Notes: generated by a model not told the origin, from the sequence alone. A stretch of DNA of 64,000 bases from an uncultured Methanosarcinales archaeon (GCA_964557345.1 CAZKZU010000001.1:555-64554); one strand, 5' to 3'. Counted from the stretch's first letter, positions 35,063-52,852 are shown. Numbers and translations: made by a program.

Positions 35063-35118
35063 AGTAAAACTTTCGTTTAAAAAGTAATCTTATTAAATAG
35101 CAGTATGTTAATATTATT

Positions 35119-36525
35119 ATGGACAGAGATTATATTTTTCATGAGTCAACAGAGAGTATTTGCCCGAAGTGTTTAGCGCGAATACCTGCCAAAATAATCT
35201 ATAAAGATAATAAGGTTTTTCTGAAAAAGTTTTGTAAAGTTCATGGTGAACAATTGGAATTGTATGAAGAAGATATTGAATATTATGAAACCAAAAAAGG
35301 ATTTGATAAGCCAGGTACAATTTCTAAAACGCAAACTAAAATTAATCGCGGATGTCCTTTTGATTGCGGGTTATGTCCTGATCATGATCAGCATACTTGT
35401 ATTGGTCTTATTGAAGTAACCAATAAGTGTAATCTTAATTGTCCAACATGTTATGCAAATAGTGGGAAAGGGAATTTTTTGTCTTTAGATAAATTATCTA
35501 AAATGATGGATTTTTTGATTGAATCAGAAGGTGGGCAGTCAGAAATTTTGCAGATTAGTGGAGGGGAGCCAACTATACATCCTGAAATAATTAAAATTAT
35601 TGAGTTAGCGAGAACTAAAAAAATAAATTACGTTATGCTTAATACTAATGGTGTGCGAATTGCTGAGGATGAGAATTTCGTAAAATCTCTTGGTAAGTTT
35701 AAAGGAAAGTTTGAAGTGTATTTGCAATTTGATGGTTTTTCTCCTAAAGCAAATATTGCACTTCGTGGAAAAGATTTGGTTAAAATTAAATTGAAGGCAA
35801 TCGAAAATTTGCGAAAATATAATATTCCCATAACTCTTGTAACAACAGTTCAAAAGGGTTTGAATGATTCTGAATTAGGGAAAATAATTAAGTTTGGAAT
35901 GGAAACTTCTTGTATTAGAGGAATAAATTTTCAACCGGTTTGTTATTCTGGAAGAGGTTCATTTAAAGACACTAAAAAGACTGAATTAATAAATGATCGA
36001 ATTACGCTTTCTGGCGTTATTAAAAAAATAGAGCAGCAATTGCCAGAAGTATTTGTGAAAGGCGATATTGTACCATTACCTTGTAATGCTGAACGTGTTG
36101 CTGTTACGTATTTGGCAAGATCTGGTGATAATAATGGTAATAATAAAAAAAATAATGATTTTATTCCAATAACAAGAAGTGTTAAAGTTAAAAGTTATCT
36201 TCCCTTAATAGATAATACTTTTGGTTTTGATGCAGATAAGATATTAAAACAAAATGTTAAAAAGGCAATTACTCCTGCGGGTTTTTGTAATTGTATGAGT
36301 TTTATTAAAGATCTTAAAGGCATTATTCCTTTGAGTTATGCATTAAAATCTGATGACGAGAAACTCACTTATTTGAATGAAAATACATTTAGGTTAAGCG
36401 TTACTTCTTTTATTGATGTGTTTAATTTTGATATTAAGTCGATGCAAAAAGAGTGTGTGCATATTATAACTCCTGATTTTAAAAAAATTCCTTTTTCAGC
36501 ATATAATATGTTTTATAGAAAATGA
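35119..36525 (+). CDS. Radical SAM enzyme with N-terminal rubredoxin/Zn-ribbon-like Cys cluster and a second Cys cluster; possible lipid-modifying enzyme (Tes/GDGT-MAS-like, tentative)
   Basis: CPKC..(x)..CKVHG; CPFDCGLCPDHDQHTC; radical SAM Cx3Cx2C in VTNKCNLNCPTCYA; GGEPT motif. Followed by lipid-related genes. Confidence 0.65.
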   Translation: MDRDYIFHESTESICPKCLARIPAKIIYKDNKVFLKKFCKVHGEQLELYEEDIEYYETKKGFDKPGTISKTQTKINRGCPFDCGLCPDHDQHTCIGLIEVTNKCNLNCPTCYANSGKGNFLSLDKLSKMMDFLIESEGGQSEILQISGGEPTIHPEIIKIIELARTKKINYVMLNTNGVRIAEDENFVKSLGKFKGKFEVYLQFDGFSPKANIALRGKDLVKIKLKAIENLRKYNIPITLVTTVQKGLNDSELGKIIKFGMETSCIRGINFQPVCYSGRGSFKDTKKTELINDRITLSGVIKKIEQQLPEVFVKGDIVPLPCNAERVAVTYLARSGDNNGNNKKNNDFIPITRSVKVKSYLPLIDNTFGFDADKILKQNVKKAITPAGFCNCMSFIKDLKGIIPLSYALKSDDEKLTYLNENTFRLSVTSFIDVFNFDIKSMQKECVHIITPDFKKIPFSAYNMFYRK

Positions 36526-36566
36526 TTGTTGTTAGAATTAATTAGGTTACAAAACAGTGGTTTTTA

Positions 36567-37151
36567 TTGACAATGGTAGATTTAATATTAGTAATTGCGG
36601 ATGTTGTAATTGGGCTGTGTCTTTTTGCGTTATTTACTTCTATACTTATTAATTTTGTAGAGTCTAAACATAAAGAAGTGAAAAAAGAAAAAAGAAGTAT
36701 AGTTGAAACGGGATCGATGACTTTATTTTTTATCTTTTTTTATTTATTAATACGATTTAAAATCGGCGCATTTGTCGTAGGGGATTTTGCTAGGGTCAGT
36801 TTGATTATAATAGGCCTAATTATGATAGTATTTGGATGTTTTGTTAACATTTTTGGTAGATTTAATTTAGGCAAAAATTGGGCTAACCAAGTTAAAATAT
36901 ATAAAAACCAAACTCTTGTGAAAGTTGGAGTTTATAGATTTGTAAGGCATCCTTTGTATGCTTCAATTATGTTGATGTTTTATGGTGCGTGTTTAGTGCA
37001 TTTGAATTATTTGGCGTTTTTTTCGAATACATTCATATTTATTCCATTTATGTATTATAGGGCGAAGCAAGAAGAATGGCTATTAAGTAAAACTTTTAAA
37101 GAATATAGTAAATATCAAAAAGAAGTAGGAATGTTTTTTCCAAAGTTGTGA
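36567..37151 (+). CDS. Isoprenylcysteine carboxyl methyltransferase (ICMT) / phospholipid methyltransferase family membrane enzyme
   Basis: VRHPLYAS motif and C-terminal EEWLL..FKEY..Y...V pattern typical of ICMT/PEMT; polytopic. Confidence 0.6.
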   Translation: MTMVDLILVIADVVIGLCLFALFTSILINFVESKHKEVKKEKRSIVETGSMTLFFIFFYLLIRFKIGAFVVGDFARVSLIIIGLIMIVFGCFVNIFGRFNLGKNWANQVKIYKNQTLVKVGVYRFVRHPLYASIMLMFYGACLVHLNYLAFFSNTFIFIPFMYYRAKQEEWLLSKTFKEYSKYQKEVGMFFPKL

Positions 37152-37708
37152 TTGTTATGAAAGCTAAATTAAATACAATGAAAAAAGTAAGTGTGGCTAA
37201 TAAAAAAGTTTTGAAAACTAATAGTTCTGTAAAATTAGAAACTTGTGATAGTTGTAAAACGTGTTCAACTGATTTAGTTGATATTAGAAAAGATGCATTT
37301 GCTTTTTGTCGATATGGAGTTATGGTTCTTGTTTGGATAGCATTTATTTTTAAAATTAAATGGTTGGTTTTATTGGTATTTGGAATTCTTGTGTTGTCGG
37401 CAATTCTTGGTGTGCAATATGCTCCAATGATTCTGTTATATAATTATACTGTTGGTTTATTTTTTAAGTTCAAAACAGAATCGCTTGGAATTAGCGGAAT
37501 GAGGTTTGCTCATACGTTAGGAAGTTTTTTATCTGGACTTGCGGTATTATTCTTATTTTTCTGGAATGTAAAAATTGGTTGGAGTATTACTTTGTTTTTA
37601 GCTATTATGAAGACGATTTCCGCTTTAGGATTATGTCCTGCATATAAATTATATAATTGTATGAAATCTGGTGGCTGTTGTTCTTTTACTAAACGATTGA
37701 GCAAGTGA
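37148..37708 (+). CDS. Membrane protein with Cys-rich termini (CDSCKTC; CPAYKLYNC..GGCC)
   Basis: Hydrophobic helices; overlaps the upstream methyltransferase stop (ATGA-type coupling). Confidence 0.3.
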   Translation: MIVMKAKLNTMKKVSVANKKVLKTNSSVKLETCDSCKTCSTDLVDIRKDAFAFCRYGVMVLVWIAFIFKIKWLVLLVFGILVLSAILGVQYAPMILLYNYTVGLFFKFKTESLGISGMRFAHTLGSFLSGLAVLFLFFWNVKIGWSITLFLAIMKTISALGLCPAYKLYNCMKSGGCCSFTKRLSK

Positions 37709-37754
37709 GTAAATGAATATTTCAGTAAAAATATTATAATAAACGGTAAACAAA

Positions 37755-38507
37755 ATGTTAGATTATCACACAGTTCCATCGGGAGTTTGGGGAATTAGAC
37801 CCGTTTTATTTAGTATTGGAAAATTTGAAGTTAACTCTTATTCTTTTTTTGTCCTTCTTGGGCTTATTGTAGGTCTTGCAGTATATTATTACTTGGCTAG
37901 AACGGAGAAAAAAGTTAATGAGAATTCTTTTTATGTTTTAATGGCGGGACTTTTGGGTGGCGTTATTGGCGCTAAGCTACCAATGTGGATTATTAATTAT
38001 CGTTTGATAATTGAAAGTTTTCCCGATATTACTCCTCTACTTTCAGGTAGAACTATTACAGGGGGACTTATTGGTGGAACTCTTGCCGTTATGTATGTTA
38101 AATACAAGTTGAAAATTAAAGATAAGAAAGGAAATTTATTTGCACCAGCTATTGCAATTGGTGTTGCTATTGGTAGAATTGGTTGTTTATTTAAAGGATG
38201 TTGTTATGGAATTGCAACAAGTTTACCTTGGGGTGTTGATTTTGGTGATGGAATACCTAGGCATCCAACTCAGATATATGAAATAATTTTTTTCCTTTTG
38301 ATGTTTGTGTTTTTGATGGTGAAGCGCGAAACTGCAAAACCAGGTCAGTTATTTTATTGGCTTATGAATAGTTATTTCATATTTAGATTTGTTGAAGAGT
38401 TTATTCGAGAAGAGCCAACTTTGTTTTTAGGTTTGACTATATTTCAATATATTTCAATTGTTGCACTAATTTTTATCAACGCAAAGTATTTAAATGAGAA
38501 GAAGTAG
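37755..38507 (+). CDS. lgt: Prolipoprotein diacylglyceryl transferase homolog
   Basis: Lgt signature GRIGCLFKGCCYG (G.R.GNF.NGE-like) and HPTQIYE. Polytopic, 250 aa. Confidence 0.65.
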   Translation: MLDYHTVPSGVWGIRPVLFSIGKFEVNSYSFFVLLGLIVGLAVYYYLARTEKKVNENSFYVLMAGLLGGVIGAKLPMWIINYRLIIESFPDITPLLSGRTITGGLIGGTLAVMYVKYKLKIKDKKGNLFAPAIAIGVAIGRIGCLFKGCCYGIATSLPWGVDFGDGIPRHPTQIYEIIFFLLMFVFLMVKRETAKPGQLFYWLMNSYFIFRFVEEFIREEPTLFLGLTIFQYISIVALIFINAKYLNEKK

Positions 38508-38516
38508 GTAAATGGT

Positions 38517-38885
38517 ATGGCGAATGTTAAAGTAACTAAGATGTCTAAAACTGAAAATAATTTTTCTAAAGTCGAAAAAGATTATTATGATACTACTAGT
38601 AAGAAAGTTGTTGATTTCTCAAAAGGCTTTTTTTTAAATATTGTAATTGGAGTTGTTGTTACAGTAATCAATTTCTATACTGGAGCGGCTATATTTGATA
38701 GTTCTCCGACGATAATAACTAGGCTAATTGGTATTGCAGTTCCTTTAACTGTAATTCCTTTGGAGATCTTTCTGATTAGACATTTTTTCAAACAGAAAAG
38801 ATTTATTGCAATTGGTATGTTGTCTTCTTTAATATTGCCATTGTTAGTTACTGGAACTTGTTCTTTTATGTTTTTAACGGCTTGA
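38517..38885 (+). CDS. Small membrane protein (tandem paralog 1)
   Basis: MANVKVTKMSK...DYYDTTSKK N-terminus followed by three TM helices. Paralog of 38936..39292. Confidence 0.35.
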   Translation: MANVKVTKMSKTENNFSKVEKDYYDTTSKKVVDFSKGFFLNIVIGVVVTVINFYTGAAIFDSSPTIITRLIGIAVPLTVIPLEIFLIRHFFKQKRFIAIGMLSSLILPLLVTGTCSFMFLTA

Positions 38886-38935
38886 TTAGTAAATTAGCTA
38901 AAAACATTTAAATTAGAGAGTAAATCATATTTACT

Positions 38936-39292
38936 ATGGCAAATGCAAAATTATCTAAAAAAGTAAAAATTGAAAAAGATTATTATCAATCAACTGCTAG
39001 TAAAGCAACTGATTTTGTAATAGGGTTTTTTGGTGTTTGGGTAGTTAATGCGTTAATTGGTTATGGGTCTTATTTAATGTTTGCTAGACTTATTAATTGG
39101 TCTGCTAATTATACTTTGATTTATTCCTTGACTACTATTTTTTATTTAGTAATACTTGGTTTAAATATTGCAGTAATAATTTTATCTTTTAAACGAAATA
39201 GGCGATATATTGGAATAGGAATTTTGTGTTCTGCGGTTTTACTTCCATTACTTGCTTTTGGAGCATGTATAGTTGCTCTTAGTGGTTTATAA
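38936..39292 (+). CDS. Small membrane protein (tandem paralog 2)
   Basis: MANAKLSKKVKIEKDYYQSTASKATDF followed by TM helices. Paralog of 38517..38885. Confidence 0.35.
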   Translation: MANAKLSKKVKIEKDYYQSTASKATDFVIGFFGVWVVNALIGYGSYLMFARLINWSANYTLIYSLTTIFYLVILGLNIAVIILSFKRNRRYIGIGILCSAVLLPLLAFGACIVALSGL

Positions 39293-39365
39293 AATAATTA
39301 TAGCTCTCATTATTTTTAGGATTATTTAAAATAATTCTTTAATTTATTAATTAAATTATAAATTT

Positions 39366-40022
39366 TTATTTTTCATTAATGTTGTGCGGGTTTTCTAGTC
39401 CTATTAATTCACAGATTCCAAAATAAATTAGTCCTAACGCAAAATATGAGATTTGCATCCATATTGGTGCATGAATACAATTAAAAAATGGAATTCCGTT
39501 GTAAATAGCAGCAGATGCATTTTGAATGTTGAATACGTGGTATGCGATAGTTTCAATTGATATGAGAAGTGGCCAGTATATAGCGATGAATAAAAGCATT
39601 TTTTTCGCGTAACTTTTTGAGTTTATTTTGTGTTCAAGGTGTGAATATAATATGTACGTTAAAAATAATCCTGTTGCCCAGGCGAAAAGAGGGTAAATAG
39701 TTATTCCGAAAATAGTGAGCATTTCTTTGTTATAACCATATTGATTGTGTGCGAAAATCATCCATATTAGTGCAACTCCTGATGATACAAAAAGGTGATA
39801 AATTAATCTTTTTCTCGATGTTAAATATAAATATGGAAATAATAGAATATATGCTCCAATCATAACTAAATCTGGGCGAAATATAGCTAATAGGAAGAAA
39901 ATTAATAGAGTGATAATTTTGTCAAAAAAAAACATTTGTTTTTTCCAATTACGAGATTTTGTTTTAGTTTTAATATTCTGTTTATGCAAGAATATACTAT
40001 TTATGTATTTTGTTAAATTCAT
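39366..40022 (-). CDS. Polytopic integral membrane protein of unknown function
   Basis: Six or seven hydrophobic helices with no catalytic motif. Checked for the prepilin-peptidase GxGD motif; not found. Confidence 0.3.
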   Translation of the reverse strand: MNLTKYINSIFLHKQNIKTKTKSRNWKKQMFFFDKIITLLIFFLLAIFRPDLVMIGAYILLFPYLYLTSRKRLIYHLFVSSGVALIWMIFAHNQYGYNKEMLTIFGITIYPLFAWATGLFLTYILYSHLEHKINSKSYAKKMLLFIAIYWPLLISIETIAYHVFNIQNASAAIYNGIPFFNCIHAPIWMQISYFALGLIYFGICELIGLENPHNINEK

Positions 40023-40171: not shown

Positions 40172-41215
40172 TTAAATATCAAATCTTAATTTGGCTGCAA
40201 TTCCGCCTAGCCCATCAAGTCTTTTTACGTGATCTCCTTTTCCGGATATGATTTTAATTTTTCCGCCATTTTCTTCTATTTGTCTAAATAGAAATTCTAG
40301 TTCGCCCATGGTTTCGTTTTCTCTTTTCTTTTTGATTAAGTTGTCGGAACAGACAAGTGTTTCAATTGCAGATTGTTCGTTTGCTTTTGTGCAATCTTTT
40401 AATCCATATGCTACTTTTGAATCTTTAGAAATGCTCGTAAATATGTCCTCTACAAGTCTTGCATCTCGTACAGCTTGTTGATCTTTTAGTGCTATTTCTA
40501 TTTCCGGTCTTCTTAGAAGTTCAGCAAAACTACTTTCAGAGACTTCGTTTATGATTGCAAAGATTGTTTTCTTTTTTAAATCTCCTAGTTCATTTTCCAT
40601 ATTATTTTTCCAGAAATGACTGCTTGCGCAAATAATATGTTTTGGTTTAATTCTATTATCAAGTTCAGTTAGTTGATCTACGATTTCTTTAAAGAAATTT
40701 GTTGCTTTTGGAGTTCCTGCAACTTTTTTTTCTACATTTCCTGCAACTTTTGAAATAGTATGAAAGCTATTTTTTTCTAATTTTGCAAATATTGCTTCTT
40801 CTCGATCAAAAATACATGCAATGATTTTAGAATCTTCTTTATTTACTGCTTCATTGATTTTGTCGAGTTGATAAGTTAACCAATTTTTTCGTATTTCAAT
40901 TTCATCGTTTTCTGCTACGTTTAATGAATGATAACTTCCAAGAGGAATATCTTCTGGACCTGCAATAACAGTTCCAAGAATTTTTAGATTAGTATCTTCT
41001 AAATCGATTTTTTCCGCTTTTATTGCTAAAAAGACTGGTTTTTTGATAGCTTTTGTTTTTTCTGAGGTTTTATCTCCTAATATTATTTTTCTTATTGTAA
41101 TTCCTGAAACTGCATCCCCTTTGCTTAATATAGTACTAATACACCATAGGTCATCTATGCTTTCTGGCTTTATCTTTAAGCTTCCTTGTTTTAGGTTTTG
41201 GGATATTATTTTCAT
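40172..41215 (-). CDS. pelA: Pelota / Dom34-like mRNA surveillance factor
   Basis: Typical Pelota N-terminus MKI....G.LKIKPESIDDLWCISTIL.KGD and an eRF1-domain-3-like C-terminus; 347 aa. Confidence 0.8.
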   Translation of the reverse strand: MKIISQNLKQGSLKIKPESIDDLWCISTILSKGDAVSGITIRKIILGDKTSEKTKAIKKPVFLAIKAEKIDLEDTNLKILGTVIAGPEDIPLGSYHSLNVAENDEIEIRKNWLTYQLDKINEAVNKEDSKIIACIFDREEAIFAKLEKNSFHTISKVAGNVEKKVAGTPKATNFFKEIVDQLTELDNRIKPKHIICASSHFWKNNMENELGDLKKKTIFAIINEVSESSFAELLRRPEIEIALKDQQAVRDARLVEDIFTSISKDSKVAYGLKDCTKANEQSAIETLVCSDNLIKKKRENETMGELEFLFRQIEENGGKIKIISGKGDHVKRLDGLGGIAAKLRFDI

Positions 41216-41253
41216 TTTGGTTTATTTATTTGCTAAATAATGCATAATTCTCA

Positions 41254-41387
41254 AATTATACTGCCAATTCGCCTTTCTGGTTTTTGTCGGCATTCGCCTG
41301 AGTATAGTCGCGAACGCTCCTCACTATGCGTTCGTCGCTGCTCCATTGAGTCATACGCAATATCGGCTCATGAGCAGGCAGTATATT
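41254..41387 (+). repeat. MITE-like repeat copy A (~134 bp, terminal inverted repeats ~TATACTGCC/GGCAGTATA)
   Basis: Nearly identical to the reverse complement of 45655..45790, and colinear with 62446..62579. GC-rich and intergenic. Confidence 0.7.
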
Positions 41388-41479
41388 TTTGGATTGTTTC
41401 GGGGTAACTTTTTTTTATGGTGCGTTCCCACTATATACTATTATAGATATATTTATAAATATTAAGTGCAAATAAGTTC

Positions 41480-43168
41480 TTGATGAAGAGTAAGTTAGCG
41501 CAGACAGCTAGTGCAGCAGGAGTAGTTGGTGTTATAGCGTTAGTTTTAATTATTTATATCGTATTAATTCCTGGTATTAAAGATTCTATTAATGGAGGAA
41601 GTTCTAGTGGCGGTAGTTCTGCTGGTGGGACAACAAGCGGTTCAACCCTTGTAAATGGATCTAGACCTTTAAATTATGTTGATCAGTTTTCTTTTCCAGG
41701 TCCTGGATTAGTTGATAGTTCAACAAATGGAAGGCAAATTATTTTACCTACTCTTAATCTTAAGACAACTACAAATTCTAAAATTTTAGCAAGTGATAAT
41801 AGTTTTTATGTGTATAAAACTTTTTTTGGAAATGATAAAAGAAAATCAATTATGTTTGATATTAAAGATTCAGAGCAAATTAGTAATGCACAGATTTCCT
41901 TTTTAGTTAAGAAATCATACGGTATGATTTATATTGATTTAAACGGCGTTAGAATTTATGAAGATGAACTTAGTTCTATGAATATAAATCCAATTAAAGT
42001 AAGTTCTGCTTTATTTCAAAAAAATAATTTATTAGAAATTTATACTGACTATCCAGGAATTGTATTCTGGAGACAACATCAATATATAATTGATGACTTT
42101 AAACTTTTTGCAGACGTTACTCAAACAAGTCAACAATCAAGTTTGGTTTCTTTTGATCTTAAACCATCAGAATTTAAATCATTAAGTAGATTGAAACTTA
42201 AATTTTATCCAACTTGCACTCAATCAACTGTCGATAAATTATATGTCTCATTAAATGGGCAAACAATTTCTGAACAAGTTCCTGATTGTAATGTATTAAA
42301 TATTTATGATCTTCCTCAAATACAAACAAAAGAAGGAATGAATACTATCGAGTTTAAAACTTTAAAAGATTCGTACTTGGTTGATCAACTTTCAGTGCAG
42401 ACTGAGCTTAAAGAAAATGATGATTTAATTTATACTTTTGATTTAGATAAAAAATTATTTAATTTTAAAGAAGAAGCTAAAAACGTGTGTGGTGAATTAG
42501 ATGGCGTATGTCCTGATTCATGTACTGCTGATCAAGATAAAGATTGCTGTTTCTTAGAATATAATAAAGGATTTTGGTGTACTGCTCCAACATTAAATGA
42601 AAATGATAAATGTGTTGGTAGAGTTGATAATTATAATATTGGTTTATGTCCTTCTGGATATGAAGATAAAAGTAAAAATCCTCCAACTGATTTTGAAAAT
42701 TTATGTGGTGATGATACTGATGGTACTTGTCCATTAGGTTGTTCTAAATTTATGGATAAGGATTGTTGTTTTGAGAATACTGGATATTGGTGTTCCGACG
42801 TTGCAACTAATGGAATGGCTGGCGTTTGTGTTGATGTTGTTACAAAAGATAGTTGTTCTTTTTGTCCTAGCGGATATAAAGGAGAGGATTCAACTCCAAC
42901 TTGTGATGGTTATGAAACTAGAAATCCAATGGAAGAAGTTTCTCAATTAAAATCTACATATCAAGCTGACGTTCAACTAAGATTTGTTGATGATGGTAAT
43001 AGAAAGAAAGGTAAAATTATTGTTGATGGTAGTACTATTTCATTTACTACACTAGAAGGAACTTATACTAAAGAAATTAGTACATTAGTTCAAGATGGAA
43101 ATAATTATGTGCAGATTGTTCCTGAAAGCGATTTCAATTTAGTTAATGTTAAGGTTACTGTTAAATAG
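41480..43168 (+). CDS. Surface protein with a pilin-like (class III-type) N-terminal signal and tandem Cys-rich modules
   Basis: N-terminus MMKSKLAQTASAAGVVGVIALVLIIYIV. Repeated C..DG.CP..C....DKDCCF...G(F/Y)WC modules at ~42480-42915. Confidence 0.4.
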   Translation: MMKSKLAQTASAAGVVGVIALVLIIYIVLIPGIKDSINGGSSSGGSSAGGTTSGSTLVNGSRPLNYVDQFSFPGPGLVDSSTNGRQIILPTLNLKTTTNSKILASDNSFYVYKTFFGNDKRKSIMFDIKDSEQISNAQISFLVKKSYGMIYIDLNGVRIYEDELSSMNINPIKVSSALFQKNNLLEIYTDYPGIVFWRQHQYIIDDFKLFADVTQTSQQSSLVSFDLKPSEFKSLSRLKLKFYPTCTQSTVDKLYVSLNGQTISEQVPDCNVLNIYDLPQIQTKEGMNTIEFKTLKDSYLVDQLSVQTELKENDDLIYTFDLDKKLFNFKEEAKNVCGELDGVCPDSCTADQDKDCCFLEYNKGFWCTAPTLNENDKCVGRVDNYNIGLCPSGYEDKSKNPPTDFENLCGDDTDGTCPLGCSKFMDKDCCFENTGYWCSDVATNGMAGVCVDVVTKDSCSFCPSGYKGEDSTPTCDGYETRNPMEEVSQLKSTYQADVQLRFVDDGNRKKGKIIVDGSTISFTTLEGTYTKEISTLVQDGNNYVQIVPESDFNLVNVKVTVK

Positions 43169-43300
43169 GCTTTAACCCTAGTTATGCTTATTTAGTTGTA
43201 TTTATTTGGTTGTATTTGTTTAGTTGATTTATTTAGAATTTGATACTTTATTATAATGATGATTAAAAATTTCTTAAAAAGAGGAGAAGTATAGATTAAT

Positions 43301-45598
43301 ATGGCTAATGTTCCTGGCGCTACTGGAGGTTCTTCTACTAGTAGTCCCGTTACTCCTTCAGCTCCCATCATTCCTAAGCCGGGATTTATGGAAAGGTTTG
43401 GAAAATATATTCCTTTTGTTGTAAATAAGTCAAGAGCAGCGGCAGTAGCTGGTGTGGGAATGGCGGGTGCAGCTTGGGGATTTGGATCTAAAGTAGCTAA
43501 AAGTGTTGCTGAAAAAGCGCCTTCTATTAAATATTCAATGATGTTTATTATTGCATGTATTTTGGCAGCAGTTAATTTTGTTTATTCTTCCAATAATACT
43601 TTAAAATTAAGTCTTCTTATTGTATATTTGGTTATTTTTTATTATTCATTTCAGAATAATATTGATAATATAAATAAAGAATACGGAAAGATCATCTTTT
43701 TTTCACTGATATATATTTTTGCTCCAACACTTGGTAATTTACTTGTATCATATGTGCCTGATATTGGTATTAGAAATTTATTAGTATATTTTTTGTTTAT
43801 ATTTGGATATTTGAGTCCATTGATAATGCTTTTATCAGTTCATCATGAAGAAAATTGGTTTAGCATTACTTTAGAATTACTTTTAGTCTTTTTCTTAATA
43901 GTTTTAGTTTTAAAATTTATGGCTACAGCAGGAATTCTTCCAGAAGGAGATCAAATTAGTTCTGATCAAAAGGAGGCATTTACTTCATTATTTGTTGGGA
44001 CTTGGGACACCATTAAATCCATTCCTACTTATGTTAAAACCTCAATCAATGGAACTGCGCACGATATAAATCAATCTTGGAATCAGATTCAAGGTAATAG
44101 TTATGAGGAAGAAATTGATCAAAGTGCCCTGGTAAGTACTCTTGGTTTAAAATTAAATGATATATCTTTTTCTAATACAGATGGCGCTTATTATCAAGGA
44201 GATCCTATTGATGCATGGACCTCTATTGAAGGAAAGAGTCTTGCTCGAGTTATTAAAGTAAAAACTTCGTGTGTTGTTGATAGGAAAAGAGGTTTAACTG
44301 AAAATATAACTTGGGTTCCTAAAAAACCTGAATTTTATATCAACGATATTGGATTTGAAGATATCTCGTGTAAGTTTCCAAAAAATAAATTTACTACTGT
44401 TAGAAGTTATGAATTAGAAATGTTTGCTGATTTTGATTTTACAACTAGTTCATATTTAAGACGATATTTTATTTCTGAAGCAGATAATAATAATATGAGG
44501 AAAAATAATATAGATCCAATTGTTTATTATAATATTCCACAGACTGATGAAGAAGGTAAATATACTAACGGACCAGTTGAACTTTCAGTTGTTAAAAACA
44601 ATTTATTACAACCTTTAGCTGATCAAGGAGATACTTTTTTATTAGGAATTAAAATCGCGACAAATAGAAAACAAGGTTTTGGCGATGGTAAATTAGTTAC
44701 AATGACCAATCTTCATCTTTCTTTGCCCCCCGGATTTGAGCTTGCTAGAGATGGTTCTAGATATGACTGCGGTAATTATGAGTTCGAAGTTTATCCTGGT
44801 GCTGATTGTATTGCGGATTGTACCCGGCTTATGAAAGGAGAAAGATGTATAGCTGATTGTAATAATTATAATAATTATAGGTTAAAAGCAGCTGATTCTA
44901 ATAATATAAGTGCTGGTGTTTTACCAAAAATAAAAGAAGAAGGAAAAGAATTCGTTAAATTACCTTTGCAAATTCCATGTTATGTGAAAACTAAATCTTC
45001 GCAATCTATACTTAAAACATCCAAGTTCGTTATGGAAAATTTCAGAGCAACAGCAGATTATGATTTCGAAATTTCAGTAGCAAAACCTTTTAAGATTCAA
45101 GAAAAGCAAGGTTATGTTAATGCAGAAAAATTAGCTGATTTTTGTGGCTTTAAAACAAGTTATATCAATTCAAGTTTAATTACAAAAGATAATGTTAATA
45201 GTTTAATTTCCAGGTCTGCTGAGCTTATTAATGATAGTAAAGTTTCTTTTTCAGGTTCAACAGTTTGTTCACAATTAATCAAAGCTATTGTCGTATATAA
45301 GAATAGAAATGGTGTTGAAAATAATATGGGTTATGGAATTACTGGTATAACTGAAGAACAGCTTGATTATTCTTATCAATGGCCAACTAATTTAGCTAAT
45401 GTTGAAACACAACATCAAGATATAACTTTAACTTCAAATTATTTGAAATATGCGCTTAGTCATGAGTGTACGATTGATGGACAACAAAATTTAGATTGTG
45501 CTCTTGGTTATTATTTCTGTAATTCTGGAACTGGTAGTTGCGTTGAAACTGTAGCTCCAATTGTAATACAGATCGCTAAAGCATTAAGTACTCCTTAA
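43301..45598 (+). CDS. Large polytopic membrane protein with a Gly/Ala-rich N-terminus and a large Cys-containing extracellular domain
   Basis: 765 aa; multiple TM helices at residues ~80-215, then ~550 aa soluble domain with many Cys. Confidence 0.4.
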   Translation: MANVPGATGGSSTSSPVTPSAPIIPKPGFMERFGKYIPFVVNKSRAAAVAGVGMAGAAWGFGSKVAKSVAEKAPSIKYSMMFIIACILAAVNFVYSSNNTLKLSLLIVYLVIFYYSFQNNIDNINKEYGKIIFFSLIYIFAPTLGNLLVSYVPDIGIRNLLVYFLFIFGYLSPLIMLLSVHHEENWFSITLELLLVFFLIVLVLKFMATAGILPEGDQISSDQKEAFTSLFVGTWDTIKSIPTYVKTSINGTAHDINQSWNQIQGNSYEEEIDQSALVSTLGLKLNDISFSNTDGAYYQGDPIDAWTSIEGKSLARVIKVKTSCVVDRKRGLTENITWVPKKPEFYINDIGFEDISCKFPKNKFTTVRSYELEMFADFDFTTSSYLRRYFISEADNNNMRKNNIDPIVYYNIPQTDEEGKYTNGPVELSVVKNNLLQPLADQGDTFLLGIKIATNRKQGFGDGKLVTMTNLHLSLPPGFELARDGSRYDCGNYEFEVYPGADCIADCTRLMKGERCIADCNNYNNYRLKAADSNNISAGVLPKIKEEGKEFVKLPLQIPCYVKTKSSQSILKTSKFVMENFRATADYDFEISVAKPFKIQEKQGYVNAEKLADFCGFKTSYINSSLITKDNVNSLISRSAELINDSKVSFSGSTVCSQLIKAIVVYKNRNGVENNMGYGITGITEEQLDYSYQWPTNLANVETQHQDITLTSNYLKYALSHECTIDGQQNLDCALGYYFCNSGTGSCVETVAPIVIQIAKALSTP

Positions 45599-45654
45599 TT
45601 GTAGATTGTTATATTTCTTATTTTATTTGATTTTACATATTATTCTTTGACTGA

Positions 45655-45790
45655 AAGTATACTGCCTGACTATGAGCCAATAAAACGTACTAAATTGGTG
45701 GAGCAACGACGAACGCATAGTGAGGAGTGTTCGCGACAATAGACAGGCGAATGCCGATAAAAAAAAGAACGGCGAATTGGCAGTATACTT
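45655..45790 (-). repeat. MITE-like repeat copy B (inverted relative to copy A)
   Basis: Its reverse complement aligns with 41254..41387 over ~135 bp with few mismatches. Perfect 12 bp terminal inverted repeat aagtatactgcc/ggcagtatactt. Confidence 0.7.
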
Positions 45791-45857
45791 GATAAAATCA
45801 TAAGACTTAAGCAATTTTACCATAAATATTAAAAATAGCAGAGAATATAGCTATGTT

Positions 45858-46820
45858 ATGAGAAGAAGTATTTTAAGATTGATTTTGATTGTTGTGGTAG
45901 TATTTTCTTTATTGTTCATGTCTGGATGCGGATCTAGCGGTAATACAATTAATTACATTTCTGATAATCAATTTAGAACTGGTACTAATGGAGTTACTAT
46001 GGAATTTGTGCAAAATTCTCCTCCTGAATCGATGATTGAAGATGCTGAAGTTTCTGTTGGAGTTAAATTACATAATGATGGCGCTTATAATGTTCAAAAT
46101 GGGTATTTAGTTGTTAGTTATGATAAGGATTATTTGACTTTATTTAATACGGGACAAAAGTCCTTTAATTTAGAAGGGAAAAATAAATATAATAAAGCTG
46201 GTGAAGAAAAGAGTATTTTTTTTGATGGTAAAACTTCTGTGTTAGAAGTTGAAAGCCAAAGACATGATGTTCCAATTGTAGCATCTATATGTTATCAATA
46301 TAATGCAACTTTATTAGATTTACTTTGCTTTGATACTCCTGATTTGCCGAATAAAGAAAAGGGTAAAACTATTTGTTCCTATAAGTCCGATTATTCTTAT
46401 AGTGGCCAAGGGGCTCCAGTTTCGATTTCTAACGTTAAATTAACTTTATCCTATTCTGAGGTTACTCAAAAATTTAAACCCATTATTGACTTTGAAATAA
46501 GTCATACTGCAAGTGGTTTTAGTAGTGATAAAGGCTTGGTTGTTAATTATGATAATTATAGATCAGCATGTACTAGTTCTGGATCGTCATCTTTTGATAA
46601 TTTGAATTTAGTTAAATTTGAGGCATCAATATCTGATGAAATTTTATCTTGTAATAAAGAAGAAGGGACAGTTACTCTTAGAGATGGAAAAGCAAATGTT
46701 AGATGCACTGGAAATTATATTGAGGCAGGATATTTGCCTTATCAAGCTCCATTAAAGATAGATTTACTTTATGGTTATATGACTACTACATCTACGACAA
46801 TGCAAGTAATTCGAAGTTAA
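45858..46820 (+). CDS. Secreted lipoprotein
   Basis: Signal peptide plus lipobox MSGC|GSS; Cys-containing beta-rich protein, 320 aa. Confidence 0.45.
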   Translation: MRRSILRLILIVVVVFSLLFMSGCGSSGNTINYISDNQFRTGTNGVTMEFVQNSPPESMIEDAEVSVGVKLHNDGAYNVQNGYLVVSYDKDYLTLFNTGQKSFNLEGKNKYNKAGEEKSIFFDGKTSVLEVESQRHDVPIVASICYQYNATLLDLLCFDTPDLPNKEKGKTICSYKSDYSYSGQGAPVSISNVKLTLSYSEVTQKFKPIIDFEISHTASGFSSDKGLVVNYDNYRSACTSSGSSSFDNLNLVKFEASISDEILSCNKEEGTVTLRDGKANVRCTGNYIEAGYLPYQAPLKIDLLYGYMTTTSTTMQVIRS

Positions 46821-46895: not shown

Positions 46896-47687
46896 TTAGA
46901 TTAGTTCAAATACGTAGTTTTTAACATACAAACTATTAGTAGTTGTAGAATATGTCACTATTTGGTTTGTATCGATTTTATAGATTTCTTTATTTGTTAA
47001 TTTTACGCACGTATCTTCTGTTTTTGTTACTTTACATCTAACAAAGAAGTCTTTAGCTTGATAGATAGTTGATATGTCTGTAAAAAAATCCGATTTAGCT
47101 GTAAAGTGTGGCCAGTAATAATAGTAGCTATGATCATTATTGGTTGCCATTCTTTTTATTCTTTCGCTATGTTTTGCAATGCCGTATACATTTTCATCTT
47201 TTTCAATTAGTGTGTAATTATTAGGGGAAATAGCGTTTATTGTTTTGTCTTCTTCTTTGTTATCCATTATAATTGAGTTGTATAATTTTATTTTGTTAGG
47301 TAGTTCTAAGTTGGTTTGATTTTCCATCCACTCCAATGCATATTTAGATAAATCTAATTGATAAGTTGAATTTTGGAGAATAATTTTCCCGTCTTGTTTT
47401 GGTAGATTTTTAATGGCATAGTCTTCGAAGATTTTGCTTTTTTCATCAATTATCTTTTGTGACGCAGTTTCAATGAAGAACCTTTGTTTGTAGCTTTCTT
47501 GCTTCATTTCTGTAATTTTAGCTGCGTCTATACCAACATAAGTAGTTGAGGATATTTGTGTTGCAATTCCACTAATTGCTATGTATAAAACGAAAATAAC
47601 GAATACCATTAATAGACTTACAATTAGGACTGATGCTTTTTTTCCAGCTTTATGTATTGAACTTTTTGTATTGTTTTTTGTTGTCAT
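46896..47687 (-). CDS. Pilin-like protein (class III signal peptide)
   Basis: Signal HKAGKKA|SVLIVSLLMVFVIFVLYIAI; last gene of the minus-strand pilin-like cluster. Confidence 0.4.
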   Translation of the reverse strand: MTTKNNTKSSIHKAGKKASVLIVSLLMVFVIFVLYIAISGIATQISSTTYVGIDAAKITEMKQESYKQRFFIETASQKIIDEKSKIFEDYAIKNLPKQDGKIILQNSTYQLDLSKYALEWMENQTNLELPNKIKLYNSIIMDNKEEDKTINAISPNNYTLIEKDENVYGIAKHSERIKRMATNNDHSYYYYWPHFTAKSDFFTDISTIYQAKDFFVRCKVTKTEDTCVKLTNKEIYKIDTNQIVTYSTTTNSLYVKNYVFELI

Positions 47688-47691
47688 TTTT

Positions 47692-48189
47692 TTATTTATC
47701 GGTTTTATCTAAAAACATTAGGTATGCTCCTCTATTTTGATAGTTAACCATTAATTCAGCAGAGTATGGATTAACTATTACTATTGAAGGTATTTCTATA
47801 GCACTTTTTCTATATGGCAATATTAAATATGACTTTTTGAAAGGCATTTTATCATTAAAATTTTCATTGGTTACTATGTCCCCTTTAAACGTTACATATT
47901 CTTTTTCAGCAAAAATATTATTGCTATCATCATAATTTTTTAGTTCAATGGTGATTGGAGTATACTCATCGTAAAGAGATCTATTCATCTTTATTAGCAT
48001 TGGAATAAATGAATCTACAATGTCGTTATTGTGAGAATCTGTTATTTTTTTGTTTTTCATTTCTTCTAGTTTAGAACTTAAGAGCCAAAAACCTACTATT
48101 AGTGCTACAAGTATGATTACTCCGATTATTACATCAGTCGCAAGATCTGCTTGTGCTTTTTTTGTATTCCTTATGGTTATTGGTCTCAT
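47692..48189 (-). CDS. Pilin-like protein (class III signal peptide)
   Basis: Signal TKKA|QADLATDVIIGVIILVALIVGF. Confidence 0.4.
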   Translation of the reverse strand: MRPITIRNTKKAQADLATDVIIGVIILVALIVGFWLLSSKLEEMKNKKITDSHNNDIVDSFIPMLIKMNRSLYDEYTPITIELKNYDDSNNIFAEKEYVTFKGDIVTNENFNDKMPFKKSYLILPYRKSAIEIPSIVIVNPYSAELMVNYQNRGAYLMFLDKTDK

Positions 48190-48300
48190 GTTTTTTAGTT
48201 ATTATTTTTCTAGTTTTTTCTTTTATGTTTTTAGTTATTTTATTGTTTGTTCTAGTATTTTTTAGTGTTATTTATTGCACTCTTATTATTATTCTTATCA

Positions 48301-48792
48301 TCATATTTTCCAAAATGATATATTTATCTTTCCGGCTTTGTATCCGTTAGTATCTTTGATTAAAATAGGATAAACTTTACTAAAATCAGGCCTGTCGATA
48401 TAATTTATTGTTTTTAATGATCCATTTACCTCGTTGTTTTTATCGTAAACAGTCAGTTTTACTCCTTTATTTTCTTCCTCAGAATAAAGTCCCATGCAAT
48501 TACTAAAAGTTACGTTATTAGTTAGTTTTGATTCGTCTATTACTTTACTATATTTTATTCCTGTGAATGGATCAATGTAATTGATACAATTGAAAGCTCT
48601 TTCTTCAAAGTTAAGAACGTTTGTTCCGTATGTGTTTTTGTAATATTTGTCGTTAATGCCTGTTGCAAGGATCATTAAGAATATGAATAGAACTATAATT
48701 ATAATTATTGCAATTATATAATAACCCATTTTATTTCCTAAATCAAATGATTCAGATTGGGCCTTCTTATTTAATTTCTTGAATGGTTTCAT
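48301..48792 (-). CDS. Pilin-like protein (class III signal peptide)
   Basis: Signal NKKA|QSESFDLGNKMGYYIIAIIIIIVLFIF. Confidence 0.35.
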   Translation of the reverse strand: MKPFKKLNKKAQSESFDLGNKMGYYIIAIIIIIVLFIFLMILATGINDKYYKNTYGTNVLNFEERAFNCINYIDPFTGIKYSKVIDESKLTNNVTFSNCMGLYSEEENKGVKLTVYDKNNEVNGSLKTINYIDRPDFSKVYPILIKDTNGYKAGKINISFWKI

Positions 48793-48805
48793 TTTTTAGT
48801 TTAAT

Positions 48806-49840
48806 TTAAGGTTTATTTACGCTTGCAATTTCAGTTCCTGCGCCATTTTCTAGTATAGGGACTATTTTGATGCTATTAATAACTATATTATTGTCAGTGT
48901 ATTTTGTTTCATCTTTTACATACGGAGAATAGTATCTAACTTCGTACCATTGCTCAGGATAAAGTTCTTTTAATTGAGGCCCACTACTTGGAATCATCCT
49001 ATCGTAAAAAGAATTAATTGCATCATATCCCGCTCCTGCAACCATTATGGCTATCGCAGCCCAGCCAAATGGAGTTGATCCTAAAAAAAAGGCCACAGGT
49101 AGCATTATTAGAGGCATGTTTTTCATTGCATTTCCGATATTAGATGATTGTTCATTCCATGCAATTGTCTCATCAACTTTTTCAATAAATTCAATGTAGC
49201 CATTTCCTTCGTAGAATACATATCCTGCATATGAGAGATAGTTTTTATCTCCAGCTCCATATTTTTTAATTGATTCTTCAAAAGTTGTATCTATTTTTTT
49301 TCCTTTAGTATTATAGTTCCAAAGAGAATATTTGTTATTGACGTCTAATAATTCTGATGTTGATATTTTTGCATTTTTATCATCTAAATGTAGTTTGAAT
49401 TTATAGCACGAAAAATAGTAATTTCCGTCTTCTCTCCACCCAATCCAATTAGTAGTGCCTTGCCCGAAAGTGTTAAGTATTTTTCCTTCTCCAAATGTGC
49501 TCCAGCAACTATCGATCATATTTCCCATTTCAATTGTAACTTTTTCTTTTAATTTATCCCCGCTGTATTTTGTTAAGTTTATTTCTTTTGTTTGCGTTAT
49601 GCACATAGGGTGTTTCATAGCTCCTTTCGCTACGGCATCTAGTCCCCATATATCTTTTTGAAGTATCGATCTAGAGACTTGTAATTCTTCTTTACAGATC
49701 ATATTTTGCGTTTTTGGTTCAAGACTTAAATAGAATTTGCTGACTATTGCAATTGCAAGTATTGCGAATATGATAACTAAGAGGATTTGCATTATTGCAG
49801 TCATTTCTCCTTTTTTGTTTTTTTGGATTATTTTGGCCAT
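48806..49840 (-). CDS. Pilin-like protein with a large C-terminal domain; paralog of 52853..53803
   Basis: Signal NKKG|EMTAIMQILLVIIFAIL. The C-terminal YEVRYYSPYVKDETKY..N.IK.VP..E.GAG is shared with 52853..53803. Confidence 0.45.
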   Translation of the reverse strand: MAKIIQKNKKGEMTAIMQILLVIIFAILAIAIVSKFYLSLEPKTQNMICKEELQVSRSILQKDIWGLDAVAKGAMKHPMCITQTKEINLTKYSGDKLKEKVTIEMGNMIDSCWSTFGEGKILNTFGQGTTNWIGWREDGNYYFSCYKFKLHLDDKNAKISTSELLDVNNKYSLWNYNTKGKKIDTTFEESIKKYGAGDKNYLSYAGYVFYEGNGYIEFIEKVDETIAWNEQSSNIGNAMKNMPLIMLPVAFFLGSTPFGWAAIAIMVAGAGYDAINSFYDRMIPSSGPQLKELYPEQWYEVRYYSPYVKDETKYTDNNIVINSIKIVPILENGAGTEIASVNKP

Positions 49841-49915
49841 TTGATTTTATTATTTTGTTTTATTATTATTTTTTCTTTATAGTTTAGTTCTTAGTATTTT
49901 CATATTTTTCGTCCT

Positions 49916-50809
49916 TTAATTTAATCCTTGAACGTATTCTCCGAATTTGTTAGTTTTAGTAATAATGATTGGATTTTTCTCAAGTTGCTCTTTTGTTACT
50001 ATAATTTGAACTGATTGAAGTGCAGAGATTATTTCATCATAATTAGTGATCGGAATGCTGTTTACTTCGCCTAGTTTATTTTTTGTTGAAGTTGCCTTGA
50101 TTTGGTTGTAATAGATGTCGCCATAAGTTTTTGCTTTATCATTGTATTCTATTTCGAAAGAGTTTTCTTTTGAGTCAATTTGTATCCAAATCAGAGAACT
50201 CATATTTTCTAATGCTTTAGTGATTTGACTTTCTGTATTTATGTTTTTATTTTTTAGAAGGAAATTCATAGCACTTTTGTATTGGAGATTATTTGTGCTG
50301 TTGGTGTAGAAAAATATCTTTGTTTGTTTGAAATTATCTGTATTAGTATTAACGGCATTTCCATCATTATTTGTTATTTCTTTATCTGTTAACCTACTTT
50401 CTAAATCTTCTTTTGGTTTGTCGCTTGCATATAATTGAGTTCCTATTTTATAGAAATAAAGTTTTGAAACGTTTTGGAATTTTGCTTCTATTTGAAAGTT
50501 TTTGGGATTAGCGTATCTTGCCGCATATTTTTTATCAGTAAGTGATGGAGATTTGTCTAATTGTATAGTGTCTTTTTGAAAGTCAATATCTACACTTTTA
50601 TTGAACTGAAAAACATATTTAAAATTTCCTTCTATCGAAGGTGTTCTTTCCATAAATAAAGCTAAATTGTAGGTGTCAAAACCAATCATTTTAGCATCGC
50701 TAACTGTTACTTTGTATGCATATCCTGTGAATGTAATTATGATTAAAGCTAGAAGTACAAGTTCCATTAGGAAGAATATTTCTGCTTTTTTACTTTTGTG
50801 TTTTATCAT
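49916..50809 (-). CDS. Pilin-like protein (class III signal peptide)
   Basis: Signal SKKA|EIFFLMELVLLALIIITF (type IV pilin-like, Glu in the hydrophobic N-terminus). Confidence 0.4.
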   Translation of the reverse strand: MIKHKSKKAEIFFLMELVLLALIIITFTGYAYKVTVSDAKMIGFDTYNLALFMERTPSIEGNFKYVFQFNKSVDIDFQKDTIQLDKSPSLTDKKYAARYANPKNFQIEAKFQNVSKLYFYKIGTQLYASDKPKEDLESRLTDKEITNNDGNAVNTNTDNFKQTKIFFYTNSTNNLQYKSAMNFLLKNKNINTESQITKALENMSSLIWIQIDSKENSFEIEYNDKAKTYGDIYYNQIKATSTKNKLGEVNSIPITNYDEIISALQSVQIIVTKEQLEKNPIIITKTNKFGEYVQGLN

Positions 50810-50812
50810 TTT

Positions 50813-51409
50813 TTATGTGCACGTTTGTTGAGTTGCATTAAGGCAGAATTGGATTTTATTGTCTTCTCGTATGATGTAAACATTATCTGAGTAGATAATA
50901 CTCCTTTGACCAGGTTTTGCATTTATTTGGGTGTGTTTGTTTCCAAATACATAAAAGTCTTCTGAGTTGTAAGGAGTTTTAAATAATGAAATGGCAGATA
51001 CTCCTAATGTTTTGCAGTAAGTGAATTTATTTGATTTTGTATAAAATGCACAAATACAGGATATTTCATTGCATTTTGTGGGTTTGTATAAATTTTGCTT
51101 TGTAATGTCTGAATAGCCTAGTGTCTTATTTGATCCAATTTGAAAGATGAAGATTAAATAATTTCCATCCAAATCTTCATTAATAGGAAGAAGTTGAGTT
51201 AGATATTTTTCAGGTCTTTGATTTAGTTCTTTAATTTCATTTGCCCATTGGTCAATTACATCTTCTTCATAGTGTTTATCCATGAAGCCTGTGAATTTCA
51301 AAACGATTCCTATAAAAAATAGTATTAAGAATACAGAGCCTAAAAGTCCCATTAAAAATTTTAAAGAGATGCTTGTGCCGGCTTTTTTTGAGTGGTTGAA
51401 TTTTTGCAT
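50813..51409 (-). CDS. Pilin-like protein (class III signal peptide); start trimmed to MQKF...
   Basis: Signal SKKAG|TSISLKFLMGLLGSVFLILFFIGIVL. The ORF-track N-terminal extension to 51511 is unlikely to be real. Confidence 0.35.
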   Translation of the reverse strand: MQKFNHSKKAGTSISLKFLMGLLGSVFLILFFIGIVLKFTGFMDKHYEEDVIDQWANEIKELNQRPEKYLTQLLPINEDLDGNYLIFIFQIGSNKTLGYSDITKQNLYKPTKCNEISCICAFYTKSNKFTYCKTLGVSAISLFKTPYNSEDFYVFGNKHTQINAKPGQRSIIYSDNVYIIREDNKIQFCLNATQQTCT

Positions 51410-51702
51410 ATTTTCCTCTTTCTTTTTAGTGTGAATGGAAGTCCTAGTAAAAACATAGGTTTGAAATCTTTTGTAAGTGTGCAAGTTGCAGTTTCTTGTC
51501 CAGGGATACATTGTCCAACCCCGCCGATAGTTTGGTTTACTACATCGTTTTCTCTTCCAATGTTTTTAACGAATATGAATATTACAACGACTAATACAAG
51601 GATAAGGATAGTTGCAATTATAACAGTTGAAAGTGTTAATTCATTGGATTTTTTATTATTAATATTTACTTTTGATTTTTGGTTGTTAGTTGTTTTTGTC
51701 AT
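51361..51702 (-). CDS. Small Cys-containing pilin-like protein; paralog of 53947..54207
   Basis: Signal NKKS|NELTLSTVIIATILILVLVVVIF; short C-terminal Cys-containing domain. Confidence 0.35.
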   Translation of the reverse strand: MTKTTNNQKSKVNINNKKSNELTLSTVIIATILILVLVVVIFIFVKNIGRENDVVNQTIGGVGQCIPGQETATCTLTKDFKPMFLLGLPFTLKRKRKICKNSTTQKKPAQASL

Positions 51703-51787
51703 GGGTTATCTCCTTTTTAGCTTTGTTATTTTTACTATAGTTTTTAATTATTCTTAATTCTTATTATATTTTTAATTTTGCTTAGTA

Positions 51788-52573: not shown

Positions 52574-52586
52574 TTTTTATTGGTAT

Positions 52587-52784: not shown

Positions 52785-52852
52785 TGTGTACTTCTTTTTA
52801 TTTCTCTTATATATATTGATTTTGATATGTTTATATAATAAACTTACAATGA

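Follow-up and report, generated by a model that had tools for sequence, protein, structure and literature searches.

A gene pair between inverted repeats

The stretch of DNA considered here, a 64-kb part of contig CAZKZU010000001.1 (GCA_964557345.1; hereafter the window) with a GC content of 29.6%, carries two inverted copies of a short repeat, named E in this report, which bracket a pair of genes encoding cysteine-containing surface proteins. Copy A (41254-41388, + strand, 135 nt, 47% GC, nhmmer E=6.6e-42) has the termini AATTATACTGCC and GGCAGTATATTT and is flanked by the start of a Pelota gene (41215, - strand) and the putative promoter of the first bracketed gene, p562. Copy B (45655-45790, - strand and thus inverted with respect to A, 136 nt, 43% GC, nhmmer E=4.7e-38) is flanked by the stop codon of the second gene, p765 (45598), and the start of a lipoprotein gene, p320 (45858). 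A repeat search gave inverted arms of 92 nt (41254-41345 and 45699-45790) that are 89% complementary, as well as a second pair of arms (41354-41389 and 45654-45689), and a 28-nt core occurs twice in the window against an expectation of zero from 100 shuffles. The initial annotation had described the two copies as near-identical and inverted; the inverted arrangement is real, whereas the identity of A and B is only 82.4-82.5% over about 137 nt, with 21 nt as the longest perfect match in the alignments.

Exactly two open reading frames (ORFs), p562 and p765, lie between the copies, and their positions bear out the gene number and the lengths of 562 and 765 aa given earlier. The product of p562 (41480-43168, +, 562 aa, likely start ATG at 41483) has one N-terminal hydrophobic anchor following a pilin-like KLAQ motif, and 20 cysteines, most of which are located in a repeated CG..DG.CP..C...D.DCCF motif. 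The product of p765 (43301-45598, +, 765 aa) is polytopic, with five to six hydrophobic segments, 15 cysteines and a large cysteine-containing C-terminal domain. Neither protein matched a Pfam family. The earlier descriptions of p562 as cysteine-rich with a pilin-like signal, of p765 as polytopic and cysteine-rich, and of pilin-like genes in the vicinity can therefore be retained. On the left, the pair is preceded by the Pelota gene (40172-41215, -; eRF1_1 and eRF1_3 domains), which is divergent from p562; on the right it is followed by p320 (45858-46820, +), which encodes a protein with a lipobox (LFMSG-C).

Gene order in distant relatives

An exhaustive search showed p765 to belong to a real family: at E<=1e-3 there were 530 representatives, of which 213 were at E<=1e-10, the full-length homologues being 30-40% identical. 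Genomic contexts were compared for the three closest p765 homologues, on the loci L050 (56.8 kb), L051 (NCBI GCA_047603145.1) and L052. All three have the same order of genes as the window, Pelota (-), p562-like (+), p765-like (+) and p320-like (+), in a block that spans 40172-46820 in the window, 7193-13203 in L050, 1535-7695 in L051 and 3-5932 in L052. The orthologues align over about their full length, with identities of 54% for Pelota, 52% for p562, 40% for p765 and 43% for p320, the ranges in the relatives being 53-54% for Pelota (in L050 and L051, the two compared), 46-52% for p562, 35-40% for p765 and 38-43% for p320.

The spacers differ. Between the starts of Pelota and p562 (site A) there are 54-58 nt in the relatives and 264 nt in the window, and the distance between p765 and p320 (site B) is -4, 115 and -4 nt in the relatives compared to 259 nt in the window. 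A profile of E gave no nhmmer match in the loci L050, L051 and L052, and the 9-mer TATACTGCC was not found there either, so that both sites are empty in all three relatives, the pattern of presence and absence that is expected for a miniature inverted-repeat transposable element (MITE). Since the same block occurs in three repeat-free relatives, the gene pair predates the repeats and has not moved, and since the pair is ancestral at this position, copies A and B are to be regarded as independent later insertions into intergenic DNA.

The initial annotation had likened the arrangement to a composite transposon, in which A and B would be the ends of a 4.5-kb unit that brought p562 and p765 to this place. 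Two copies of one repeat family do bracket a discrete two-gene segment, and outward-facing terminal repeats are available from any two MITE copies. Nevertheless, this explanation is extremely improbable: the pair sits between Pelota and p320 in the three repeat-free relatives, with spacers down to -4 nt, and in none of these is it missing from the locus or found in another context. Furthermore, the Pfam matches listed for the window include no transposase, A and B are only 82% identical, and the other two copies of the repeat in the window, C and F (see below), flank nothing comparable. The outer flanks of the whole unit read CAAAT-TATA and TATA-CTTGA, but TATA is common to the ends of all copies and is uninformative with respect to a duplication made by the unit. 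Synteny thus removes the composite transposon from consideration. The annotation had itself named a combination of observations that would speak against its proposal, namely a segment that is syntenic and fixed in relatives and repeats that are absent elsewhere; the synteny is indeed what the relatives have, whereas the repeats do occur elsewhere.

A promoter-like motif, TATAGATATATTTATAAAT (41442-41460), is located upstream of p562 and to the right of copy A, and hence inside the bracket. It matches GATAGATTTATAAAG, which is conserved in the 54-58-nt spacer between Pelota and p562 in the relatives, and its conservation and position suggest that it is a promoter shared by the two divergent genes. 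If so, the insertion of copy A parted Pelota from its ancestral promoter, and Pelota must now use a new one, located either in the 38 nt that separate it from the repeat or in the end of the repeat itself. Some 50 nt between copy A and the motif (41389-41441, TGGATTGTTTCGGGGTAACTTTTTTTTATGGTGCGTTCCCAC) have no counterpart in the spacer of the relatives. A scan for bacterial promoters and terminators was uninformative, as its models are bacterial and the host is archaeal.

The conservation of the four-gene block, together with the 4-nt overlap of the last two genes in two of the relatives, suggests that three surface proteins, all of them uncharacterised, are functionally linked. The p320-type lipoprotein gene is present as two to three tandem paralogues in the relatives and as a single gene in the window.

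Strain-level contigs and the orientation of the segment

Contigs of strains with identical flanking proteins were obtained from at least four samples (JGI 3300059473, JGI 3300045131, SRR12261226 and SRR21424279). Contigs that span a boundary of the bracketed segment, at site A (L001, 4M1qn7Rp, L002 and L049) or at site B (qHf1-Ev5 and L048), all have the orientation of the window, where it should be noted that assemblies give the majority state and that rare inversions may escape. One of them, L001, spans copy A without a single difference over the aligned 701 nt, copy A included. Three others break off within copy A or B, L002 after 33 nt, L007 after 83 nt and L008 after 3 nt of the repeat. 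Short-read assemblies usually break at multi-copy repeats.

These contigs bear on a second proposal of the initial annotation, that of an invertible cassette. In such a cassette the 4.3-kb segment would be turned round by recombination of one copy with the other, and the expression of surface proteins would vary as a result. The copies are indeed inverted, the bracketed genes do encode surface proteins, and strains have exchanged sequence at a local hot spot, the repeat at site B, as described below. The proposal is weakened, and we consider it very unlikely, because the orientation in the window is the ancestral one, found in three relatives, no alternative was seen in any of the boundary-spanning contigs, no recombinase gene was detected among the Pfam matches listed for the window, and the arms are 82% identical with perfect matches of at most 21 nt. 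Moreover, the p562 promoter motif lies inside the segment and would be inverted along with the genes, so that inversion would not turn them on or off.

The exchange at site B is visible in L048, a contig of a co-occurring strain (JGI 3300045131), of which positions 1-200 correspond to window positions 45636-45830. Over 47 and 2,130 nt of flanking DNA (2,177 nt in total) it is identical to the window, whereas 33 differences are packed into 45683-45816, a patch of 134 nt that comprises most of copy B and 26 nt past its end. The repeat in L048 is a mosaic, of which the first 25 nt or so are B-like and the middle is A-like. In our reading the patch is a tract of recombination at a site that is itself fixed, and its composition suggests gene conversion or the import of a short tract at the repeat. 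Two other explanations were considered and rejected. A longer element that extends past the left terminus, as hinted at by the patch, would be expected to give related flanks, but the similarity among the copies beyond their termini is not significant (p >= 0.06). Adenine mutagenesis as caused by diversity-generating retroelements does not fit, since by inspection the substitutions hit all bases.

Anatomy and distribution of the repeat family

The E repeat is 134-136 nt long and has a GC content of 43-47%, compared to the 29.6% of the window. It ends in a terminal inverted repeat (TIR) of 12 nt, AAGTATACTGCC / GGCAGTATACTT, which was found in copies A, B, C and B', being perfect in B and B' and carrying one or two mismatches in A and C. 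All occurrences of the 9-mer TATACTGCC in the window, five against 0.28 expected, are at ends of E. The centre of the TIR is the palindrome GTATAC. At both ends of every copy there is TA or TATA, which, being palindromic and invariant, is indistinguishable from the TIR, and no consistent direct repeat among the copies was found beyond the 12-nt arms.

Coding capacity was considered on the basis of an ORF of 66 aa over copy B and one of 64 aa over X1, a copy on a metagenome contig described below. Because indels break the reading frames between copies, and because copy A has no start codon, this was rejected, and the repeat is non-coding. A six-frame translation of E used as protein query gave no match. 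Searches of Rfam at gathering and at permissive thresholds, with the copies, the GC-rich island at 33 kb and the whole window, returned a tRNA-Phe as sole match, and nothing for E.

The initial annotation listed two copies. These are real, but a third and a fourth were missed. Copy C (62446-62579, +, 134 nt, nhmmer E=1.2e-39) is 78-80% identical to A and B and is flanked by the start of an eIF-2B-family gene (61453-62346, -) and the stop of an ORF at 62618-62932 (-). Its flanks lengthen the inverted repeat (GAAATAAGTAT... / ...ATACTTATTTC) and form a 20-nt palindrome around the target, GAAATAAG-TATA-CTTATTTC; the flanks of copy B read AAG-TATA-CTT. The fourth, F (32969-33141, +), is an old and diverged copy that was found with a profile hidden Markov model built from the other copies (nhmmer 33042-33118, E=5.7e-9) and extended by full-length alignment to an E-homologous core at about 32999-33124, TTTGCCAAGTTCGC...GGCAACAATA. 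A perfect inverted repeat of 15 nt, different from that of E, surrounds this core, GATTTTCTACAGAGC (32969-32983) and GCTCTGTAGAAAATC (33127-33141) in - strand reading. F forms a GC-rich island, on one side of which a PKD/Big_9 surface-protein gene (33323-34540, -) ends and on the other a DUF4349 gene (32000-32896, -) starts. There are thus four copies of the E family in 64 kb, all of them intergenic, which is the dispersed, multi-copy distribution of a MITE.

Outside the window, copies were found on the metagenome contigs L006/L016-L018 and L048. A pattern scan of metagenomes gave one real extra locus, L006 (the same contig as L016), and two chance matches. The only match in a scan of a genome collection, in a metagenome-assembled genome of Scatosoma, was due to chance, as were all matches in three scans of viral collections, and phage and plasmid collections gave no match.

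On L006, L016 and L018 there are two tandem E interiors in the same orientation, X1 and X2, which are 81-85% identical over the aligned stretches. X1 has no left terminal arm of the usual kind. Upstream of X1, positions 1-43 of L016 are very GC-rich (CACCACGGCGGCTCAAGCTGCGAGCGCCTTGCGACCGCTCGCC) and include a motif, CTGCGAGCG, that is also present in the island at 33 kb of the window; together with X1, this region may represent a further element that is nested or truncated. Between X1 and X2 lies an insertion sequence (IS) of the IS5 family (159-1352 in L006/L016 with the transposase gene forward), which is 1.2 kb long and encodes a 311-aa transposase with DUF772 and DDE_Tnp_1 domains. Read on the minus strand of L006, the order is X1, GGCAGTATA, the IS from GAGAAC to GTTCTC, TATACTGCC and X2. 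The ends of the IS are GAGAACTTTGCAWAA, with TA-rich duplications of 2-4 bp, as defined from independent relatives of the IS (L009-L015), and the target of the IS in L006 was the TATA where two tandem E units meet. In another sample, contig L017 has the same IS and right flank with a different left flank, either because the strains differ or because the assembly is chimeric, joined across an IS that is present in several copies.

With more than 1,100 homologues at E<=1e-20, the clade of this IS is very large, and several of the homologues are labelled Nanoarchaeota. On the basis of these labels the host is treated here as a DPANN-type, probably Nanoarchaeota-like, archaeon. The IS was considered as the parent of E and rejected, since its ends are unrelated to those of E and its relatives L009-L015 never adjoin E. 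A tblastn search of the window with this transposase gave no match.

Site-specific recombination as a possible alternative to transposition

The sequences at the ends of E also allow a mechanism other than that of a DDE transposase. In this case a circular form of E with the 14-nt palindrome GGCAG-TATA-CTGCC would recombine at sites of the type AAG-TATA-CTT and leave hybrid ends. The left ends of the type xAAG-TATA-CTGCC and right ends of the type GGCAG-TATA-CTTx do resemble the hybrid attL and attR sites that such a reaction would produce, and the flanks of copy C form a 20-nt palindrome around TATA. If the duplication made by the IS in L006 is 4 bp, the tandem junction would read GGCAG-TATA-CTGCC and rebuild to the full palindrome GGCAGTATACTGCC; however, the IS duplication is ambiguous at 2-4 bp among its relatives, which makes the rebuilt junction uncertain. 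Cut-and-paste insertion with duplication of TATA or TA would give these sequences as well, no integrase or recombinase was seen among the Pfam matches listed for the window, and the comparison concerns three complete solitary copies only. We therefore hold site-specific recombination to be decidedly unlikely.

A possible function for E

Another explanation is that E is a functional unit, either the gene of a small structured RNA or a cis-acting module upstream of promoters, the TIR being a closing helix. The variable positions of E are not evenly spread but clustered in blocks (40 runs against 54.8 expected, p=0.002), and GC-rich blocks persist in copies that are 71-84% identical. The core of F with its different 15-nt closing repeat, and copy C with its copy-specific extension of the inverted repeat, are what may be expected of a helix under selection. 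Single-sequence folds of copies A and B are better than those of shuffled sequences (z = -4.0 to -5.2), but the fold of copy C is not (z = -1.2 and -0.8), and C, X1 and X2 do not keep intact the hairpin at the centre of copy A. All four copies in the window have the same end directed towards the start of a gene that reads away from them, at a distance of 39-100 nt; this bias amounts to three informative cases (p=0.125), and the adjoining genes are functionally unrelated, encoding Pelota, a lipoprotein, an eIF-2B family protein and a DUF4349 protein.

Comparative folding does not favour a structured RNA. For the five full copies RNAalifold gave unfavourable covariation terms on both strands (+1.0 and +0.56), with no conserved internal helix and no compensatory changes, the structure that is kept across the copies being the terminal repeat and a hairpin of 3 bp; a covariation test that rests on five or six sequences has low power. 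X1 is well conserved despite its missing left arm, and Rfam gave no match. Furthermore, tandem copies, an IS nested at their junction and contigs that break in the repeat are typical of mobile repeats. Taken together, a functional role as the explanation of E appears unlikely.

Nature and origin of the bracketing

Most probably, E is a non-autonomous, MITE-like dispersed element, and copies A and B are separate insertions that flank a vertically inherited gene block. That the copies bracket two genes would then be a coincidence of tolerated insertion sites, located just outside core promoters and gene ends, and the arrangement requires no special mechanism. The MITE-like character that the initial annotation had assigned to the repeat is well founded: E is small and non-coding, has a 12-nt TIR, is present at no fewer than four dispersed intergenic sites in the window and on other metagenome contigs, causes breaks in short-read assemblies, and is missing from the orthologous spacers of relatives. 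By contrast, its composite transposon and its invertible cassette are not supported, in view of the conserved order and short repeat-free spacers in three relatives, the ancestral orientation in all boundary-spanning contigs, the promoter motif inside the bracket, and the result of the Pfam scan of the 61 window ORFs, which had no transposase, integrase or invertase family among the matches listed.

By definition, prokaryotic MITEs are 50-800 bp long, lack a transposase gene, end in inverted repeats of 10-15 bp or more and are flanked by duplications of 2-10 bp, and DPANN/Woesearchaeal genomes are reported to be among the most MITE-dense of the archaea (PMC11602168). The size of E and the absence of an ORF or transposase are in accordance with this definition, and its TIR of 12 nt is at the lower edge of the required length (10-15 bp). 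E fits most of the operational criteria for a prokaryotic MITE, with a target duplication and a cognate transposase that are putative.

Several observations weigh against this explanation. The target-site duplication cannot be separated from the TIR, as the candidate TA or TATA is palindromic and the same in every copy, and if TATA is the duplication, the remaining TIR is just 5 nt (CTGCC), less than is usual in DDE transposons. No autonomous partner with E-type ends was found in the window or in pattern scans of genome, metagenome and viral collections, and since the scans gave a single real extra locus, the family is known from very few copies. Empty sites were seen only in relatives with 40-54% protein identity, in which the spacers cannot be aligned, and in no close relative or near-identical strain. 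Finally, the closing inverted repeat of F is wholly unlike that of E in sequence, and together with the block-wise clustering of variable positions this could mean function instead of neutral decay.

Some properties of E are directly visible: it is multi-copy and intergenic, forms tandem units, serves as target for another IS, and undergoes local sequence exchange. The steps by which this situation arose can be envisaged as follows. A transposase from another part of the genome would act on E in trans, and the targets of insertion would be TA or TATA inside AT-rich and partly palindromic intergenic sites. After insertion, copies would decay and occasionally recombine with each other or be overwritten, as the mosaic allele at site B may illustrate. 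Both the duplication that accompanies insertion and the timing of the insertions are steps that we infer.

A more speculative view, which we regard as quite unlikely, is that E is a mobile functional module and something beyond decaying selfish DNA, with a GC-rich and block-conserved core of which the closing inverted repeat can be replaced, as between E and F. The targets of such a module may be AT-rich palindromes a short way upstream of promoters, into which it would insert at the central TATA and always with the same end directed towards the gene, and it may act as a small RNA or a protein-binding regulatory unit, or be a tiny integrative element that recombines at the GGCAG-TATA-CTGCC core. 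E would be of greater interest if it truly carried a regulatory or RNA function, but nothing found here requires one.

The main value of the analysis is that a misreading is averted, as an apparently mobile or phase-variable surface cassette turns out to be a fixed ancestral block that acquired two repeats. New are a MITE-like family of a DPANN-type archaeon that had not been described before, for which the ends are defined, TA/TATA is a candidate target and strains differ at one locus by a recombination patch, as well as a four-gene block (Pelota, cysteine-rich anchored protein, polytopic membrane protein and lipoprotein) that is conserved across distant relatives.

Other features of the window

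The neighbours of the locus are archaeal housekeeping genes, and NrdD, ArgRS, TYW2/TRM5 and LGT are among the Pfam matches of the window ORFs. According to the initial annotation a cluster of pilin-like genes begins immediately downstream of the repeat pair, but the lipobox gene p320 intervenes. The cluster itself, eight genes on the - strand at 46896-53803, encodes proteins with a basic stretch, a KKAQ, KKAE, KKGE or KKAG motif and a hydrophobic helix, which are class III signals of the archaeal type IV pilin-like kind. No family of pilus ATPases or platform proteins turned up among the matches listed by the general Pfam scan of the window. In the relatives, the genes downstream of the lipoprotein genes are those for GINS, L44e, eIF-2 alpha and Nop10 instead of pilin-like genes.

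On the other side of the block, the PKD/Big_9 gene is directly beside Pelota in L050 and L051, whereas in the window about 5.6 kb of extra genes (34636-40022), including LGT, PEMT/ICMT-type and DUF4395 genes, are present between the two. Compared to the relatives this segment is extra, and it was therefore gained or rearranged in the lineage of the window. There is no E copy at its boundary on the side of Pelota.

Two more GC-rich intergenic islands, both unrelated to E, are located near the start of the window. The first (43-142) contains a hairpin, AAAAAGTGGGC...GCCCACTTTTT, and the second (4191-4300) follows a C-box-like motif, GATGATGA. These islands may be small RNAs; they gave no match in Rfam, permissive thresholds included.

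Comparison with known systems

Invertible switches, such as those of the fim type, invertons and shufflons, resemble the locus in that inverted repeats surround a segment for surface proteins. The repeats of such switches are short and near-perfect, a recombinase dedicated to them is encoded close by, populations contain both orientations, and inversion alters a promoter or coding junction. Not one of these four features was seen at the p562-p765 locus (for the recombinase, among the matches listed): the contigs from four samples have one orientation, and the promoter motif is inside the bracket.

With composite units flanked by MITEs or ISs the likeness is positional only, two short non-autonomous repeat copies flanking a gene segment. 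In the integron mobilisation units of Enterobacter and the MITE-flanked integrons of Acinetobacter, relatives lack the cargo at the locus in question, and several contexts are known for it, whereas p562 and p765 occupy their ancestral place in three relatives. MITE-flanked units of the integron type are also mentioned in the survey of prokaryotic MITEs (PMC11602168).

The IS5-family elements of Nanoarchaeota share with E the same kind of host, and one of them adjoins E copies on one metagenome contig. The ends of this one (GAGAACTTTGCAWAA) are unlike those of E, and its relatives have no adjoining E.

E also resembles prokaryotic MITEs, among which the Correia elements of Neisseria may be comparable. 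Differences are that no autonomous IS with matching ends was found for E, that its interior is conserved in blocks, and that one old copy has a different closing repeat. On the other hand, E shares with the prokaryotic MITEs, including those of archaea (PMC11602168), its length of 134-136 bp, its non-coding nature, a TIR of at least 10 nt, its dispersed and intergenic occurrence near promoters, a candidate target of the TA type, nested insertions of other mobile elements, and the breaks that it causes in assemblies.

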